The notes beneath the pieces are model-generated. The model had not been told where the DNA came from and made no database searches. It worked only from the letters and a program-made list of their open reading frames with translations. Below, piece after piece: positions 1 through 46,763 of a stretch of DNA of 47,498 nucleotides (the first letter of the stretch is position 1; each line of letters starts with the position of its first letter). The position numbers and the translations under genes were made by a program. The DNA is taken from IMG/VR virus record IMGVR_UViG_2660238269_000006, one strand, 5' to 3'. The stretch comes from a virus. Its lineage: Duplodnaviria > Heunggongvirae > Uroviricota > Caudoviricetes.

Positions 1-1019
1 CTACTTGCTGACCACAAGTGGCAAATCCAGTGTCGGCGTGATTTTTGTTTTACGATCATAAATCAACACCTGATTTTCTGTTTTATGTCCACTGAAAATC
101 TGTTTGTCGCGACTGCTTCCTTCGTAATCTGATATTCCTTTGGCTTTTATGTCATGGAAATTGCACCCAAACGGGACGCCGGATTTTTTCTCGGCTGCGT
201 GTTTAGCCTGGTTCCACCAGTTGTTTAGCGTTTTAGCTATGACCTTCCCGCCCTTGGTTGTGTTGATCACATATTCACATGTGCCTGAAGATACATTTCT
301 GGCTAACTGGATCGCGGTTCGTAATCGTGGAGACCATTCCTTGATTTGTTTGGTGCCGGTCTTGTTTTGCTCAATGTAGATTCCTTTATCCATAATATCC
401 TGCCATTTCAGCTCGAGCACATCACCGAGTCTTGCCGCACAAAGATAGGATATCTCCATTGCAATGCGTAACTGTGGTATTGCTTCCGCATATATCGCCG
501 CATACTGTTCATCTGTGATGTAAACAGTGCGGGCTTTAAGCGTAAATTTCCTGACTCCTTTGCATGGGTTATTCTTCACATATCCACGCTCATATCCCCA
601 CCCGTATACACGACTGAGACTTGCCAGTTCATGGTTTGCCTGGGTCTTGCTCTCAATCCCCCGTTTATCCATGAAAATTCTTACCTGCTCAATTTTTACA
701 TTATCAGCCAGTACTTTTCCGAAGACTGCCAGTAACGCCCTCTGATGTTGCCGATAATCTTTTTGGGTTCTGGGGCCAGTTCTGTAAATGCGGGGGAATC
801 CATAAACATGTGCCATAATTTAGCGACGGTCATTATGTTGTGGCGTTTTGCTTTTTCCAGTTCATAATTCTGCCAGACTTTAGCTATGCTGGTTTCCCGC
901 ACTCTTCCTAGCCCTATAGTTTTTGTGCTTCCTTCGGGTTTCCATACGTAACTGTAACCATTCGATCTAACACGTGGCGGTAGTGCATTATCTTTTTTGT
1001 TTTTTCTTGGTCTTCCCAT
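1..1019 (-). pseudogene. int: Tyrosine integrase (lambda Int family), split into two ORFs by an apparent 1-nt frameshift
   Basis: ORFs 696..1019 (N-terminal, MGRPRKNKK...) and 1..816 (C-terminal catalytic part) are in different frames; the join implied by the translations lies at the GGGG run at 772-775. Stop codon at 1-3. Confidence 0.75.
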
Positions 1020-1239
1020 TGTTCAGCGCCTCAAAATCGGGGTCAGCAGAAACCAGTTCAGATACTTTCGGTATCGCAGTCAGTCCGCGCGGGACATCAC
1101 TGCGAAGAACTATTGGTTCGTTTTTAGGACCGGGTACAAATGGGATACCGTGCAACCTTAACTGTTGTTGCTGTTTTGTATACCGTTCGTATCTCGTGAT
1201 CTCTTGAATTTCTGCTGGCGATAGAGTTAATTCGTACAT
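988..1239 (-). CDS. Excisionase-like small basic protein
   Basis: 83-aa ORF directly upstream of and overlapping the integrase start, with a basic C-terminus (NGKTKKKQKR) like lambda Xis; position-based call. Confidence 0.45.
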   Translation of the reverse strand: MYELTLSPAEIQEITRYERYTKQQQQLRLHGIPFVPGPKNEPIVLRSDVPRGLTAIPKVSELVSADPDFEALNNGKTKKKQKR

Positions 1240-4220: not shown

Positions 4221-4805
4221 TCAACAATGAATTTTTAGTAATTGCTCCACAGTCATATTTTTAATTGCGCTCCGGTTTACAAGAGTCCAGCCTTGTTTCT
4301 CCAGATAAAACTGGAAGGTATCCAGGGTGCAGACCATTGCACCATCAGGAACGGTTTCAGTGAATTTGATATTGCCGTGTTCGTCGAGACGGATAACCAG
4401 GGTACGTCCGTCCCCGTGAATCATTTTGTCGGGAGACGGGGCGTTATTCTGGCGCAGTTCTTTCTCCATGCGATCGAACTCAGCGATGTAGGCTTCTTTA
4501 AATGCAGCGGCTTTTTTGCCGGTGAAGCCCATCACCAGGAAAACGAAGCCGTTTTTGGTGATTTGGTACATAGGGAGTTTGCGCCCGGTTGAGTCGGTAT
4601 ATTCACTGGGCGAAAAATTTCGCTCAGTGAATTCTGCTGAACAGTCTAGACGTGAAATTTTTGCCAGTACATCTTTGTGTGGTTTCCGGAAATACTCGGC
4701 AACAGCTAAAGAGGATGTAACAGCACGCCCATTGGCGATAGTAATTTCAGGGTGAGAAAGGGCAGGGATAGTAGCCATGATGGCAGCCTCCATGATGAAT
4801 TTCAT
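4221..4805 (-). CDS. Rha-family phage regulatory protein
   Basis: Rha-like N-terminal motif ITIANGRAVTSSLAVAEYFRKPHKDVLAKI. The ORF is open up to 5072, but the likely start is the ATG at 4803-4805 (MKFIMEAAIMATIP...). Confidence 0.55.
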   Translation of the reverse strand: MKFIMEAAIMATIPALSHPEITIANGRAVTSSLAVAEYFRKPHKDVLAKISRLDCSAEFTERNFSPSEYTDSTGRKLPMYQITKNGFVFLVMGFTGKKAAAFKEAYIAEFDRMEKELRQNNAPSPDKMIHGDGRTLVIRLDEHGNIKFTETVPDGAMVCTLDTFQFYLEKQGWTLVNRSAIKNMTVEQLLKIHC

Positions 4806-5920: not shown

Positions 5921-6017
5921 AATTTACAAATTAAAATTTAACTGGTCAACATGTTTATTATTAAATTTGTAATTGCGAGCTGTTGCATCAGTCCCAAAAT
6001 GGGACTACTATACAGTT
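5921..6017 (+). promoter_or_regulatory. higBA promoter/operator region with inverted repeat TTACAAAT...ATTTGTAA
   Basis: Inverted half-sites ttacaaatt (5924-5932) and aatttgtaa (5964-5972) with AAATTT-rich spacer directly upstream of higB. Confidence 0.4.
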
Positions 6018-6320
6018 ATGAAGATTATCTCAGTTAAAACACTCAGGGATTTTTGGGCGGAGAATCCTGATGCAGAACAACCGCTAAGGGCATGGGTGGA
6101 TGAGGCGGCAAAAGCTGACTGGAAAAGCCCAGCAGACATTAAGGCACAATACCGAACGGCCAGTATATTGAAAAACCGGCGCGTGGTATTCAACATAAAA
6201 GGTAATCATTACCGTTTAATTGTTGCAATTGCGTATCAGCGAGGATGGGTATTTGTTAAATTCATCGGAAACCACAAGGAATACGATGCTATTGATGCTG
6301 ATACCATCGAACTGGAGTAA
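6018..6320 (+). CDS. higB: Type II toxin HigB (RelE/ParE superfamily mRNA interferase)
   Basis: 100-aa protein MKIISVKTLRDFWAENPD...NIKGNHYRLIVAIAYQRGWVFVKFIGNHKEYD matches the HigB family pattern and is followed 3 nt later by an HTH antitoxin. Confidence 0.7.
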   Translation: MKIISVKTLRDFWAENPDAEQPLRAWVDEAAKADWKSPADIKAQYRTASILKNRRVVFNIKGNHYRLIVAIAYQRGWVFVKFIGNHKEYDAIDADTIELE

Positions 6321-6322
6321 GC

Positions 6323-6682
6323 ATGAACATCAAACCTATTCGTACAGAGCAAGATTATGAAGCCGCGTTGCGTGCTGTTGAACCCATGTTCGACAATGAG
6401 CCCGAAATTGACACGCCTGAGGGGGATTTTTTTGAGGTGATGTGTTTGCTAATAGAGGAATATGAAAAAAAACATTATCCCATTGAGCCACCATCCCCAA
6501 TTGAAGCTATAAGATTTCGCATGGAACAGCAGGGGCTGACTGTGAAAGATTTGGAACCCGCAATTGGGAAAAAAAATCGGGTTTATGAGGTGTTGAATGG
6601 TACCAGAAGCCTTACGTTACCAATGATTCGCCGTCTTCATAATCAATTTGGTATCCCCCTGGAAAGCCTGGTTGGATTATAA
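6323..6682 (+). CDS. higA: Antitoxin HigA (HTH-XRE)
   Basis: C-terminal HTH (LTVKDLEPAIGKKNRVYEVLNGTRSLTLPMIRRLHNQFGIPLESL) typical of HigA; gene order toxin then antitoxin is the HigBA arrangement. Confidence 0.7.
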   Translation: MNIKPIRTEQDYEAALRAVEPMFDNEPEIDTPEGDFFEVMCLLIEEYEKKHYPIEPPSPIEAIRFRMEQQGLTVKDLEPAIGKKNRVYEVLNGTRSLTLPMIRRLHNQFGIPLESLVGL

Positions 6683-12857: not shown

Positions 12858-13157
12858 TTATAAGAAATCGGTTTCATAACTTTGCCCACCATGATAGATA
12901 CCGACAATAAAGACTTTTCTGCCATCAACGGCAAAAGCAATAATCGTTCTGTGGCGGAAATGAGTTACCCGCATCCCCTGGCGAATATCATCGCGTTTAT
13001 TGCCCCGATGCGGGAATGTAGAAAACCCATCAAGATAATCAAGAAGCGCATTGGCATAATTGTCAGCAATGATGTTCCCTGCTTTCTCCGTTATATATCT
13101 GTGCAGGTTGATTATTTGTTGTTCGGCCTCAGGAGTAATGATGACTTCATATGTCAT
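12858..13157 (-). CDS. parE: ParE/RelE-family type II toxin
   Basis: 99-aa protein MTYEVIITPEAEQQIINLHRYI...RVTHFRHRTIIAFAVDGRKVFIVGIYHGGQSYETDF, typical ParE; immediately downstream of an RHH antitoxin gene. Confidence 0.65.
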   Translation of the reverse strand: MTYEVIITPEAEQQIINLHRYITEKAGNIIADNYANALLDYLDGFSTFPHRGNKRDDIRQGMRVTHFRHRTIIAFAVDGRKVFIVGIYHGGQSYETDFL

Positions 13158-13162
13158 GCAGA

Positions 13163-13420
13163 TTACTTCCCGGATCGAATCGCGACGCGAACCTGTGAAA
13201 TGGAGCGTCCGTTGTTTGGGTTTTCGCGGATAGAATCAAGAGAGGGGGCGGCTGAATGCGTTAACCACGCTTCGATTGCTTTATCGCGCTCATTCAGTGC
13301 GCGAAGCCCTTCACGAATGACCTCGCTTTCTGAAGCATAGGCGCCGGAAGCCACACGGGCGCGCACCATGTCAGCCATCTCGTTAGTTAATGTAATGCTG
13401 AATTGTTGGGTTGTACGCAT
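13163..13420 (-). CDS. parD: ParD/CopG-type ribbon-helix-helix antitoxin
   Basis: MRTTQQFSITLTNEMADMVRARVASGAYASESEVIREGLRALNERDKAIEAWL; ATG at 13418-13420 with RBS GAGG; 5-nt gap to parE. Confidence 0.6.
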   Translation of the reverse strand: MRTTQQFSITLTNEMADMVRARVASGAYASESEVIREGLRALNERDKAIEAWLTHSAAPSLDSIRENPNNGRSISQVRVAIRSGK

Positions 13421-13555
13421 GGTAAACCTCACGGAGTAGGATAGAACACTATTCGATGATAGCACGCTGCCTGTTGACGACAACAGAAATCAGAGACAAT
13501 ATTGCCGCACGCCAGCCTGAACAACTGGCACCTGCTGCGCCAGCAGAGACAACCG

Positions 13556-14885: not shown

Positions 14886-14894
14886 AAGGGGGTA

Positions 14895-15230
14895 TTGATG
14901 TGTATAGAGTTTGTTTTGCCTTACCCGCCGACGGTGAATACTTACTGGCGACGTCGTGGCAGCACATATTTTGTATCAAAAGCCGGGGAGCGTTATCGCC
15001 GGGCAGTGGCGTTTATTGTTCGCCAGCAGCGACTGAAATTAAGCCTGTCCGGACGGCTGGCAATAAAAATTATTGCAGAGCCACCGGATAAGCGTCGTCG
15101 TGACCTGGACAACATTCTGAAAGCACCGCTGGATGCGCTGACGCATGCGGGACTGCTTATCGACGATGAACAGTTTGATGAAATCAATATTGTACGTGGT
15201 CAGCCAGTATCTGGTGGACGTCTGGGGTGA
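14895..15230 (+). CDS. rusA: RusA Holliday-junction resolvase
   Basis: LPYPPTVNTYWRRRG...PDKRRRDLDNILKAPLDALTHAGLLIDDEQ matches the RusA signature including the RRRDLDN acidic motif. Confidence 0.75.
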   Translation: MMCIEFVLPYPPTVNTYWRRRGSTYFVSKAGERYRRAVAFIVRQQRLKLSLSGRLAIKIIAEPPDKRRRDLDNILKAPLDALTHAGLLIDDEQFDEINIVRGQPVSGGRLG

Positions 15231-17761: not shown

Positions 17762-17837
17762 GGCCCTTTAGCTCAGTGGTGAGAGCGAGCGACTCATAAT
17801 CGCCAGGTCGCTGGTTCAAATCCAGCAAGGGCCACCA
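17762..17837 (+). tRNA. ileZ: tRNA with anticodon CAU, Ile2(LAU)-like
   Basis: 76-nt cloverleaf: acceptor ggccctt/aagggcc, anticodon loop cuCAUaa, T-loop ttcaaat, encoded CCA. Closely resembles E. coli tRNA-Ile2 as recalled; gene name follows the Stx-phage tRNA cluster. Confidence 0.7.
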
Positions 17838-17846
17838 TATCACATA

Positions 17847-17923
17847 CCGCCATTAGCTCATCGGGACAGAGCGTCAGCCTTCGAAGCTGGTTGCGCGGGG
17901 TTCGAGTCCTCGATGGCGGTCCA
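17847..17923 (+). tRNA. argN: tRNA-Arg (anticodon UCG)
   Basis: 77-nt cloverleaf: acceptor ccgccat/atggcgg, anticodon stem tcagc/gctgg, loop cuUCGaa, T-loop ttcgagt, encoded CCA. Symbol assigned by position. Confidence 0.6.
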
Positions 17924-17936
17924 TTATCGGTATTCA

Positions 17937-18013
17937 GCGTTGTTAGCTCAGCCGGACAGAGCAATTGCCTTCTAAGCAATCGGTCACTGGTTCGAATCCA
18001 GTACAACGCGCCA
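17937..18013 (+). tRNA. argO: tRNA-Arg (anticodon UCU)
   Basis: 77-nt cloverleaf: acceptor gcgttgt/acaacgc, anticodon stem attgc/gcaat, loop cuUCUaa, T-loop ttcgaat, encoded CCA. Symbol assigned by position. Confidence 0.6.
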
Positions 18014-18025
18014 TATTTATTTACC

Positions 18026-18050
18026 AGGCTCGCTTTTGCGGGCCTTTTTT
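18026..18050 (+). terminator. Intrinsic terminator after the tRNA cluster
   Basis: aggctcgc / gcgggcct stem (one G-U pair) followed by TTTTTT; shares the GGCCTTTTTTGTAT tail with the hairpin at 18623. Confidence 0.5.
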
Positions 18051-18102
18051 GTATCTGCGTTACACCATTAACTAATAAATCGAGTGCTTATCAGGAGGCT
18101 AT

Positions 18103-18327
18103 GTGAAAAAACTGATGGTGACGATTGGTCCGTTCGAAACAGAAGTTAGTTTTCGTGTTGTTCAGGGGGAGAGTGTACTTGTTGAAGATGTATTTCATGG
18201 AAAATCAACAGGTCCTTATGTAAAAGAATATCTTATCGACGCCACGGATGAAAATATTGAGGTGGTGTACGATTCCGTCAATCACCCTGATTTGATCATT
18301 AAGGCAAAATTGAAGCCACTTTATTGA
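18103..18327 (+). CDS. Hypothetical small protein (74 aa), cargo gene in the stx slot
   Basis: GTG start 4 nt after AGGAGG (alternative ATG at 18115); AT-rich relative to flanks; no recognisable family. Confidence 0.45.
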   Translation: MKKLMVTIGPFETEVSFRVVQGESVLVEDVFHGKSTGPYVKEYLIDATDENIEVVYDSVNHPDLIIKAKLKPLY

Positions 18328-35235: not shown

Positions 35236-35618
35236 ATTTTGCCCTCAGACTGGCGCGTGAGATGGGGAGACCCGACTGGCGCGCCATGCTTGCCGGGATG
35301 ACATCCACCGAATATGCCGACTGGCACCGTTTTTACCGCACGCATTATTTTCAGGATACCCAACTGGATATGCATTTTTCCGGGCTGACGTACGCCGTAC
35401 TCAGCCTGTTTTTTTGCGATCCGTATATGCATCCGGCGGATTTCAGTCTGCTGGCTCCCCGGCGAGAGGAAGAGCAGACGGAGATGCCGGATGAGGAAGA
35501 CATGCTGATGCAGAAAGCGGCAGGACTTGCCGGAGGCGTCCGGTTCGGCGAGGAGGGAGGGGCGATATTTCACCTTCTGCGGATGTGGTGGATGTCAGCG
35601 AGGATGATGTCGCATTAA
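34804..35618 (+). CDS. gpGT-like fusion produced by programmed -1 ribosomal frameshift
   Basis: Slippery sequence GGGAAAG at 35211-35217 (the same heptamer as lambda G/GT); the -1 frame stays open to 35618. Confidence 0.55.
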
Positions 35619-39253: not shown

Positions 39254-39997
39254 ATGACACAGACTGAATCAGCGATTCTGGCGCATGCCCGGCGGTGTGC
39301 GCCAGCGGAGTCGTGCGGCTTCGTGATAAGCACACCGGAGGGTGAACGGTACCAGCCCTGCGTGAATATCTCCGCAGAGCCGGAGGCGTATTTTCGTATT
39401 ACACCGGAAGACTGGCTGCAGGCACAGATGCAGGGGGAGATTGTGGCGCTGGTCCACAGTCATCCCGGTGGTCTGCCCTGGCTGAGCGAGGCGGACCGGA
39501 GGCTGCAGATAAAGAGTGCCCTGCCCTGGTGGCTGGTCTGCCGGGGTGAAATTCACCGGTTCCGCTGTGTGCCGCACCTGACCGGACGGCGCTTTGAACA
39601 CGGTGTGACGGACTGTTACACCCTGTTCCGGGATGCTTACCATCTGGCGGGGATAACGCTGCCGGATTTTGTGCGTGAGGATGACTGGTGGCGCAACGGT
39701 CAGAACCTGTACCTGGACAACCTGGCGGAAAACGGCTTTTACCGGGTGTCTCCGTCCCGTGCACAGGCAGGCGATATTCTGCTGTGCTGCTTTGGCGCAT
39801 CGGTGCCGAATCATGCCGCCATTTACTGTGGCAACGGTGAACTGCTTCACCATATACCTGAACAACTGAGTAAACGGGAGAGGTATTCAGAGAAATGGCA
39901 ACGACGAACGCATTCTGTCTGGCGTCACCGCCACTGGTCCGCATCTGCCTTCACGGGGATTTACAACGATTTGGTCGCCGCATCAGCCTGTATGTGA
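39254..39997 (+). CDS. Tail tip protein gpK-like (JAB/MPN plus NlpC/P60 domains)
   Basis: HARRCAPAESCGFV...ALVHSHPGG (MPN-like) and VTDCYTLFRDAYHLAGITLPDF (NlpC/P60-like); start ATG at 39254. Confidence 0.7.
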   Translation: MTQTESAILAHARRCAPAESCGFVISTPEGERYQPCVNISAEPEAYFRITPEDWLQAQMQGEIVALVHSHPGGLPWLSEADRRLQIKSALPWWLVCRGEIHRFRCVPHLTGRRFEHGVTDCYTLFRDAYHLAGITLPDFVREDDWWRNGQNLYLDNLAENGFYRVSPSRAQAGDILLCCFGASVPNHAAIYCGNGELLHHIPEQLSKRERYSEKWQRRTHSVWRHRHWSASAFTGIYNDLVAASACM

Positions 39998-40574
39998 ACA
40001 CGGCAGCGGAGGCCATCCGTGCCCTGTCGCTGCAGGTGCCGGGATTCCGCTGTCAGATGAACGAAGGCTGGTATCAGATACGTATTGCCGGTGAGGATAC
40101 CGCGCCGGAGGCGGTGTATGCCCGTCTTCATGAGCCACTGAGCGGGAGGGCCGTGATTCATATTGTACCGCGGCTGGCCGGAGCCGGGGGAAATGGTGTT
40201 TTTCAGGTGGTGCTGGGGCTGCAGCCATCGTGGGCTCTTTCTTCACCGGCGGCGCAACGATGGCGTTGTGGGGCGCAGCCCTGAGTGCCGGAGGGCTGAC
40301 TGCCACCACGATGCTGTTCTCACTGGGGGTCAGCATGATACTGGGTGGCGTGGCACAGATGCTGGCCCCGAAGGCAAAGACGCCGGAGTACAAAAGTACG
40401 GATAACGGTAAACAGAACACGTATTTTTCGTCACTGGACAACATGATTGCCCAGGGTAACCCGATGCCGGTGCCTTACGGTGAAATGCTGGTTGGTTCAC
40501 GACGGATATCCCAGGACATCAGCACCCGTGATGAGGGCGGTGACGGGAAAGTGGTGGTTATCGGGCGGGGATAA
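39895..40574 (+). pseudogene. Tail assembly protein gpI-like, interrupted by an apparent 1-nt frameshift
   Basis: ORFs 39895..40284 and 40230..40574 together cover a lambda gpI-like protein; the frame changes at the GGGG run at 40215-40218. Confidence 0.65.
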
Positions 40575-40943
40575 AAATAAAAAAATCCCGCAGAGTTAGC
40601 GGAGCTGCGGGAAATAACGATGAAGATTAACGTTATGGAGTTATTTTTTTGGGCAGAAAAACAGTAACGCAGCGTCATTATTGCGGCTACAGGCAATTGC
40701 CGGAAGTGTGAAGAATTTCAGAAATTTTCTGTGGCGGGGCTGAAATAAAAAACGCTCCCGCAATACACCTGGATATTAACGGGAGGAACGAATAGTCACC
40801 TTAAGGAGTTGCGATTAATTGCTTTTATTGACCGCAGGTAATCTACCCATCCGGCAAGGTTTCCTCCACGGGAATTTGCCGGAAATGTGAAGAATTTCAG
40901 AAATTTTATTCTGTCATGACACAGGCACCCTCCGGGGTGCCTG
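40575..40943. repeat. Tandemly duplicated non-coding element in the I-J intergenic region
   Basis: Two units, each with an identical 22-mer tgtgaagaatttcagaaatttt (40707-40728 and 40886-40907) containing the palindrome AATTTC-a-GAAATT, plus a hairpin with a flanking A/T run (40587-40611 and 40755-40785). Confidence 0.5.
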
Positions 40944-45027: not shown

Positions 45028-46763
45028 ATGACAGTCAGAATATCGGGTGTGCTGAAGGATGGTACGGGAAAAGCGGTACCGGGATGCACGATAGAGCTGA
45101 AAGCGCGACGCACAACGGAGACGGTGATTGTCACCACGGTGGCGTATGGTCAGCCGGGGGAAACCGGCAGTTACAGTATGGATGTTGAGCCGGGGTTGTA
45201 CCGGGTGACGCTGAACACGGAAGGGTACGCGCCGTCATATGTGGGTGACATTCTGGTTAAGGCGGACTCTGCACCGGGAACGCTGAATAAATTTCTGATG
45301 GACCTGGAGGACGCACAGTATTACCCGAAAGCCCTTGCAGAGCTGGAAGCGGTGGCCGCGGAAATCCTGAAACGTGCGGAAGCGTCAGCGGCGAGTGCAG
45401 AGGAAGCGAAGAAACGGGCAGAGAATGCGAGGGGACCGAAGGGGGATAAGGGAGACACGGGGCCACAGGGTATTCCCGGGCCAAAAGGCGATACCGGCGA
45501 GCGGGGCCAAAGGGTGAGCGTGGTGAGACAGGACCACAGGGGCTTCAGGGTGTGAAAGGTGAACGGGGAGAGAAGGGCGAAAAAGGCGAGCCGGGAGGAC
45601 CGGATGCGACGACGGCACAGAAGGGAATTGTGCAGTTAAGCAGCACAACGGACAGTGATGATGAAACGAAGGCAGCCACCCCGAAAGCGGTGAAAGCGGC
45701 AATGGACAAAGCGGACGGATGCCTGGAGAAAGCGAAAAACGGTGACGATATCCCGGATAAGGTGAAGTTTCTGAACACCGTGGGAGCAGCCAGAGTATAC
45801 GGGCGGGACATTCATACGGGGGCCGGTGAATGGACCACGAGTGAGTTTGTGGCCTGGCTGAAAGAAAAGGGGGCATTTGACCAGCCTTACTGGATGATGA
45901 AGGCATCACTGCCTGCGGAATTTAATAAGGTCATCACGGATGTCGGACCGGGAAAACTCAATCTGGGAGGCTGCGCCATTGAGGTGATGGGGACGTATAA
46001 CGCAGCCATAGTCCGGGTCACCATCGGCGAATACGGTGGCGATGGTTTTCTGAACGGCACGGTCTGTACCTGTACAGTTTACGGAGACACACAACGTTTT
46101 CACTGGCGGGTGGATTACAGCACAAAAAACAAACCGGATACGGTCAGCCAGCGGGATGCCAGCACGACGCAGAAAGGTGTGGTGCAGTTAAGCAGTGATA
46201 CTGACAGTAATGACGAAACAAAGGCAGCCACGCCGAAGGCCGTGAAGGCGGCAATGGATGTGGCAAATGAAGCGAAAACAAAGGCAGAAGAGGCTGCAGC
46301 AGGAGGTGGTGTTCCCGGTCCGAAAGGAGAGAAAGGGGACACGGGGCCAGCAGGTCCTGCAGGACCGCAGGGACCTGAAGGGGATACGGGAGCTGCAGGC
46401 CCGGCAGGCGCACAGGGGCCAAAAGGTGACAAAGGCGATCCGGGAGAAGCAGGTCCAGCAGGTCCGGCAGGTCCCAAAGGTGAGCGCGGTGAACCGGGAC
46501 CGATGGGGCCTCCGGGGAAAGATGGCGCAACTTCGCTGGTTAGTGGGCTGCGTATCGGAGGGAAGAAAGAAGTCGCACACCATGAGGTGATTACTTTCCC
46601 GTCACTGGATGGAGCACAACCAACGATTCCCGGCATGAATATAGTCCCTGATGGTGCTGTAATTCTGAATATCCGGTCACAGGCTTACAAAATTACTGCT
46701 GTAACTTATGGCTTTCTTCAGGTTCACAATGGAAGCCAGTGGGTAACGATTAAAACGGAATAA
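45028..46763 (+). pseudogene. Side tail fibre (Stf-like, collagen-like Gly-X-Y repeats), interrupted by an apparent 1-nt frameshift
   Basis: ORFs 45028..45555 and 45552..46763; N-terminus MTVRISGVLKDGTGKAVPGCTIELKARR parallels lambda Stf; the frame changes inside Gly-X-Y repeats at the G/C run around 45503-45508. A KGIVQLSS-type motif occurs twice downstream. Confidence 0.7.

Follow-up and report, generated by a model that had tools for sequence, protein, structure and literature searches.

A Probable Homopolymer Under-Call behind the Split Integrase Gene of a Lambdoid Prophage

1. Integrase Gene at the Prophage End

The window (i.e., the whole stretch of 47,498 nucleotides analysed here, IMG/VR record IMGVR_UViG_2660238269_000006) opens directly with the stop codon (3..1) of int, an integrase gene on the minus strand. 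As written in the record, int lies in two open reading frames (ORFs) of different frames: 696..1019, the N-terminal part of 107 aa, and 1..816, the C-terminal part of 271 aa. A previous reading of the letters and their ORFs, hereafter the sequence-only reading, had described this split and placed the shift at the GGGG run at 772–775, where a fifth G would restore one ORF; both points are borne out by the ORFs and by the alignments, and the ORF obtained after adding one G to the run is 339 aa long. The features of the locus are as follows.

1..771, minus strand: 3′ part of int, residues 84–339, core-binding and catalytic domains (PF00589, alignment to lambda Int, catalytic residues)
772..775, plus strand: GGGG run, CCCC in the mRNA sense, within codons Ala82-Pro83; site of the 1-nt deletion (GGGGG in every relative checked)
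776..1019, minus strand: 5′ part of int, codons 1 to about 82, arm-type DNA-binding N-domain and linker (identical to WP_001380353.1, alignment to lambda Int)
988..1239, minus strand: xis-like gene (DUF4224, 83 aa), overlapping the start of int by 32 nt (PF13986, E=2e-10; phrog_1266 excisionase, E=1.1e-19)

First of all, the deletion can be located by nucleotide alignment. Positions 1–1300 of the window differ from E. coli strain 48 (NZ_CP166879.1) only by G4 in place of G5 at 772–775 (Gn being a run of n G), and strain RM10466 shows the same gap together with six substitutions. The N-terminal fragment is genuine up to residue 83 and then runs through 24 out-of-frame residues to the stop at 696. 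In the C-terminal ORF the last 257 residues are genuine and the first 14 are out of frame, and its start is an out-of-frame ATG without an evident Shine-Dalgarno sequence. That is to say, the ORF at 1..816 exists as the sequence-only reading had it, but its homologous part begins at about 774 and not at 816. The break at codons 82–83 falls in the linker between the arm-binding and the core-binding domains, so that in the record as written the arm-binding domain stands on a separate 107-aa ORF and does not form one polypeptide with the core-binding and catalytic domains, while the restoration of one G brings all three domains onto a single polypeptide.

As for the identity of the product, residues 168–323 of the repaired Int matched PF00589 in a profile search (34.3 bits against a cut-off of 27.1), a match also found in the 271-aa C-terminal fragment, and the repaired protein matched the PHROG integrase families phrog_7244 and phrog_1. 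The sequence-only reading had suggested aligning the conceptually repaired protein to integrase homologs; this gave 100% identity to WP_001380353.1, a distance of 1 aa from WP_001367167.1, and a full-length match with lambda Int, in which residues 1–318 align to the lambda Int structures (1z1b, E=3.6e-19). The arm-binding N-domain is included in this alignment, residues 1 to about 60 of Int aligning with residues 1 to about 60 of lambda Int. The catalytic residues R197, K220, H289, H312 and Y321 are present in the repaired Int by alignment to lambda Int, Y321 being assigned by spacing, as that alignment stopped at residue 318. The product of int is predicted to be a tyrosine recombinase of the lambda (heterobivalent) type; the assignment to the lambda-type family made in the sequence-only reading holds on the strength of PF00589 and the lambda Int alignment. 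The DUF4224 protein encoded just upstream is the excisionase partner of Int.

The HxxR box II (window 139–153, minus strand; codons 289–293) reads H-D-I-K, with Lys292 at the position of the catalytic Arg311 of lambda Int. The motif H-D-[IL]-K also occurs in the 56%-identical integrase of another prophage integrated at a tRNA-Ser gene (L005:762-1787). Since Lys292 is conserved in this paralogous integrase, it is to be regarded as a family trait and not as damage; judged from these sequences, the Lys292-bearing group of integrases is evidently widespread and functional.

2. Prophage Context and Known Relatives

The gene complement of the window indicates a complete lambdoid prophage of the Stx-phage type, which is stx-negative. 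The ends of the window coincide with gene boundaries, the int stop on one side and the tfa stop on the other, so that both att sites fall outside it. They can be seen in the assembly JWSO02000007.1, where the 3′ part of a tRNA-Ser gene forms a 62-bp direct repeat on either side of the prophage, representing attL and attR (L057:1769-1830 and L038:22478-22539). No tRNA was found by ARAGORN at the junction next to int, in keeping with a partial copy there. In relatives, yccA adjoins int. The integrases WP_001380353.1 and WP_001367167.1 of these yccA/tRNA-Ser lambdoid prophages occur in about 740 of 5,426 complete E. coli genomes (about 14%); the prophages that carry them have the same neighbours as the window, namely the yccA side, int, DUF4224 and an 812-aa exonuclease, and their int genes differ in that the copy of the window is one G short in the G5 run. 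Int and its excisionase, like the prophage itself, are ordinary representatives of a known family.

Compared with phage lambda itself, the repaired Int resembles lambda Int (PDB 1z1b, 1z1g and 5j0n) in its full-length alignment and in the order of arm-binding, core-binding and PF00589 domains, and the two loci are alike in having int at the prophage end with an overlapping upstream excisionase gene. The relationship is a distant one, as the E value of 3.6e-19 over the full-length alignment indicates, and several differences are found: lambda integrates at attB between gal and bio, whereas the prophage of the window lies at a tRNA-Ser gene adjoining yccA; lambda Int has Arg311, whereas the repaired Int has Lys in its HxxR box; and lambda has lambda Xis, whereas the window has a DUF4224 excisionase.

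Some other features of the prophage are recorded here. The segment at 17762–21839 has the Stx-phage layout, with Q, a DNA methylase, three tRNAs (Met/Ile-CAT, Arg-TCG and Arg-TCT) and a nanS-p-like esterase, and at the place where strain 2012EL-2448 carries stxAB the window has small ORFs together with a TerB-family and a DUF3927 gene. Two toxin–antitoxin modules are present, HigB/HigA (5973–6682) beside the immunity region and ParE/ParD (12858–13483) upstream of the DUF968-rusA-Q block. In JWSO02000007.1 a YkgJ-like CxxCxxCC gene, apparently cargo, separates the tail fibre assembly gene from attR.

3. Five Differences from the Clonal Assembly

Alignment of the window with relatives brought out additional single 1-nt deletions, every one of them in a G run. 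Exact-protein look-ups led to the assembly JWSO02000007.1 (GCA_001188105.2), three overlapping stretches of which (L057, L046 and L038) tile the entire window. Over the 47.5 kb there are no substitutions between the two sequences and five differences, all of which are a G5 run given as G4 in the window (G5→G4). When one G is re-inserted at each of 772, 15224, 35559, 40215 and 45503, the sequence becomes 47,503 nt long and matches JWSO02000007.1 exactly. Each of the five sites disrupts an ORF that is unbroken in the clonal assembly, as listed below.

Site 1, 772: int; unbroken in JWSO02000007.1 (339 aa)
Site 2, 15224..15227, plus strand: rusA, truncated; 124 aa in JWSO02000007.1
Site 3, 35559..35562, plus strand: tail assembly protein T (gpT), split; 137 aa in JWSO02000007.1
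Site 4, 40215..40218, plus strand: tail assembly protein I (gpI), split into 39895..40284 and 40230..40574; unbroken in JWSO02000007.1
Site 5, 45503..45506, plus strand: side tail fibre gene stf, split into 45028..45555 and 45552..46763; 578 aa in JWSO02000007.1

The sequence-only reading had noticed the same kind of lesion in gpI and stf, and G5→G4 is indeed what is found there; the lesions in rusA and gpT had escaped it, so that the lesions number five and not three. In addition to JWSO02000007.1, three more assemblies match the window with zero mismatches over 3.5–12.9 kb and have G5 wherever one of the sites is covered. A sixth lesion at 14888 (G6→G5 relative to strain CFIAFB20190167) was considered and rejected, JWSO02000007.1 having G5 there too and the site being intergenic. 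Likewise, T4→T3 at 24822 and A8→A7 at 40579, which appear against more distant relatives, are common to JWSO02000007.1 and are not private to the window.

4. Distribution over Homopolymer Runs

The repaired prophage contains 51 G5 runs, seven G6, one G9, 12 C5 and 215 A/T runs of at least 5 bases. Five of the 51 G5 runs differ from the clonal assembly, and no difference from it occurs in the 215 A/T runs, the 12 C5, the seven G6 or the G9. If five positions were drawn at random, all would lie inside runs of at least 5 bases with P=3e-8, and if the changes were random among such runs, all five would be in G/C runs with P=8.5e-4. The strand bias, with five G runs on the plus strand and never C, is not significant (P=0.38), 59 of the 71 G/C runs being G on the plus strand. 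As regards the neighbouring base, the affected run is followed by C in four of five cases and by A in none (P=0.03). The absence of change in the eight longer G runs is not significant at that number; these unaffected longer runs suggest a context-specific systematic error, and an error of this kind fits the small-number preference for a following C over a following A.

The longest homopolymer of the window is the G9 run at 24931–24939, upstream of the small terminase gene, which is free of under-calling; the clonal assembly has the same G9, and relatives have GGGGGTGG.

Assemblies of other, nearly identical prophages show differences of a similar nature. JPQG01000002.1 has a private C4→C3 change (at window 4412–4415) that breaks the Rha gene, and AFDW01000011.1 has a private A8→A7 change together with T- and G-run changes (at window 6465 and 18574–18577). 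Among the assemblies of this prophage, homopolymer length is the main difference. It has been reported that AFDW01 is STEC EH250, which was sequenced by 454 (PMC3491183), and that the main residual error of long-read assemblies is homopolymer deletions which pseudogenise genes and are commonest after runs of 4–5 bases (PMC12007338).

5. Searches for the G4 Alleles and Frameshifted Products

The G4 allele of int was found in none of the 5,426 complete E. coli genomes, all 33 near-identical matches being 1 nt longer. Nor was it found in IMG/VR, where seven contigs have the G5 allele, in GTDB representative genomes or in JGI metagenomes. The G4 alleles of rusA and stf were likewise not found in the complete genomes checked, and for gpI and gpT the best matches listed were all 1 nt longer than the window. 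At the protein level, an exact look-up in 15 billion proteins returned no match for the frameshifted int N-terminal, int C-terminal, gpI N-terminal and gpT products.

The frameshifted N-terminal fragment of stf, on the other hand, has an exact match of 175 aa in the read-based Logan contig SRR9619715_232 (L021, 471–998; window 45028–45555). This contig was considered as a carrier of the allele of the window and rejected: it holds a different, 96%-identical stf allele with a private 1-nt deletion of its own. The deletion falls in the same stf codon as in the window and changes GCGTGGGCC of strain 2012EL-2448 into GCGTGGCC of the contig. Either this is a second, independent error or a coincidence, or the collagen-like region of stf contains a site at which real frameshifts recur.

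6. Origin of the Frameshifts

The differences between the window and the clonal assembly are homopolymer-length changes only, in the single direction G5→G4, private to the window, breaking conserved ORFs, and not accompanied by any substitution, which is the signature of systematic homopolymer under-calling. Based on the sequence comparisons, the int frameshift at 772–775 is considered, with a probability of about 90%, to be a homopolymer consensus error that is absent from the DNA of the organism. A five-G run would have been called as four, as one of five identical under-calls in 47.5 kb, and the error would sit in the base-calling or the assembly of the source of the window and not in the cell. 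Of the two alternatives offered by the sequence-only reading, the artefact gains support from the same facts, that is, five G5→G4 changes with zero substitutions against the clonal assembly, G4 alleles of int, rusA and stf that none of the complete genomes checked contains, and best listed gpI and gpT matches that are 1 nt longer. The window shares with the known under-call errors of long-read, 454 and Ion Torrent sequencing the private single-base homopolymer deletions that disrupt conserved ORFs without substitutions, and it differs from them in that only G5 runs are hit. This difference counts against an artefact, since on most platforms prone to homopolymer errors the rate of miscalls rises with run length, yet the G6, G9 and long A/T runs are unaffected here. 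A second point against it is the independent 1-nt deletion of SRR9619715_232 at the same stf codon, which may be a real or recurrent event.

The other alternative of the sequence-only reading, a prophage that can no longer excise, would follow from a true 1-bp deletion by replication slippage in the G5 run, with no full-length Int and a prophage locked in place; on that reading the frameshifts of rusA, gpT, gpI and stf would be real as well, and the prophage doubly defective. E. coli commonly harbours cryptic lambdoid prophages in which int and tail genes are inactivated, and slippage occurs readily in G:C runs. Moreover, the sequence as given encodes no unbroken Int, and the Logan contig shows that a 1-nt deletion in the same stf codon has been recorded independently. 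A comparable case is phage lambda PaPa, whose stf is split into two ORFs by a 1-bp deletion, as at 45503, a deletion reportedly verified by experiment as a real mutation of the laboratory strain (Hendrix and Duda 1992); the lesion of the window differs in being one of five same-class differences from a clonal assembly.

This uniformity speaks against real deletions, which would have to be five independent events of one class without any substitution in 47.5 kb relative to the clonal assembly. In E. coli mutation spectra substitutions should outnumber indels; if they do so by 4:1 to 10:1, the probability of obtaining nothing but indels among the first five differences is 3e-4 to 6e-6. The substitutions and mixed indel types of an ordinary neutral spectrum are not seen alongside the lesions, and selection does not explain five of them, since one is enough to inactivate the prophage. 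At an equal density over a genome of 5 Mb such frameshifts would number in the hundreds, which would not be viable. In terms of distribution, none of the complete genomes checked has the G4 alleles of int, rusA or stf, and the best matches listed for gpI and gpT are 1 nt longer; the G4 allele of int is not common to the related isolates or independent assemblies searched, and the clonal assemblies have G5. The excision-dead prophage is therefore disfavoured by the same evidence that supports the artefact, and real slippage in a pseudogene must be rated as improbable; only if the lesions were real would it hold.

A variant of this explanation accepts that all five deletions are real in one clone without any substitution, and attributes them to a targeted or strongly biased process that inactivates the prophage at short G runs. 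Such a process might be, for example, a transient slippage-prone replication state in abortive prophage induction, which would leave the prophage locked in and tail-defective. This reading is very doubtful, and slightly more so than ordinary slippage.

It can also be asked whether the split is functional: full-length Int would then arise at the C4 tract through programmed −1 ribosomal frameshifting or through slippage of transcription, or the tract would serve as a phase-variable switch of excision. As read from the sequence, the frame would be restored if the P-site tRNA-Pro moved by −1 on C_CCA; however, a slippery heptamer of the form X_XXY_YYZ is absent, and the tract has a length of only 4 nt. 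Phase-variable and slippage tracts typically have roughly 8 or more bases, and a run of 4–5 is far below this. Furthermore, the arrangement is present in no relative, all of which have the uninterrupted 339-aa ORF and G5, the G4 allele is not conserved in independent lineages, and the same change strikes four unrelated genes. Programmed frameshifting and phase variation were rejected for want of motif and conservation, and the chance that they operate here is negligible. Formally, the G4 of the window could be correct and the run over-called as G5 in the other assemblies, which is just as hard to credit, given that int has G5 and an unbroken, conserved ORF in over 30 assemblies made independently by different laboratories, and that G5 and unbroken ORFs are also found at the other four sites, both in the clonal assembly and in those close relatives that were checked.

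7. Consequences for the Use of the Record

Taking the consensus error as the preferred explanation, the record is best read as a data-quality flag for an apparent systematic G5→G4 under-call. Pseudogenes of this record at G/C runs, here int, rusA, gpT, gpI and stf, are to be distrusted, and the prophage is not to be scored as cryptic or excision-defective on the present evidence. The biological importance of the split is little. Should the lesions be real, the prophage would be locked in, capable of neither excision nor reintegration, because a lambda-type Int must bridge arm and core sites by one polypeptide, as known from the structures of lambda Int; since gpT, gpI and stf would be broken as well, its tails or particles would be defective.

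Two PHROG families annotated as ‘unknown function’ also touch on this integrase: phrog_22903 (a 107-aa profile) corresponds to Int residues 1–107, and phrog_14425 (161 aa) to Int residues 188–332. Since these two families simply represent the N-terminal and the C-terminal portion of integrases of this kind, copies of int that were split or truncated have entered phage protein databases earlier and seeded spurious families there.
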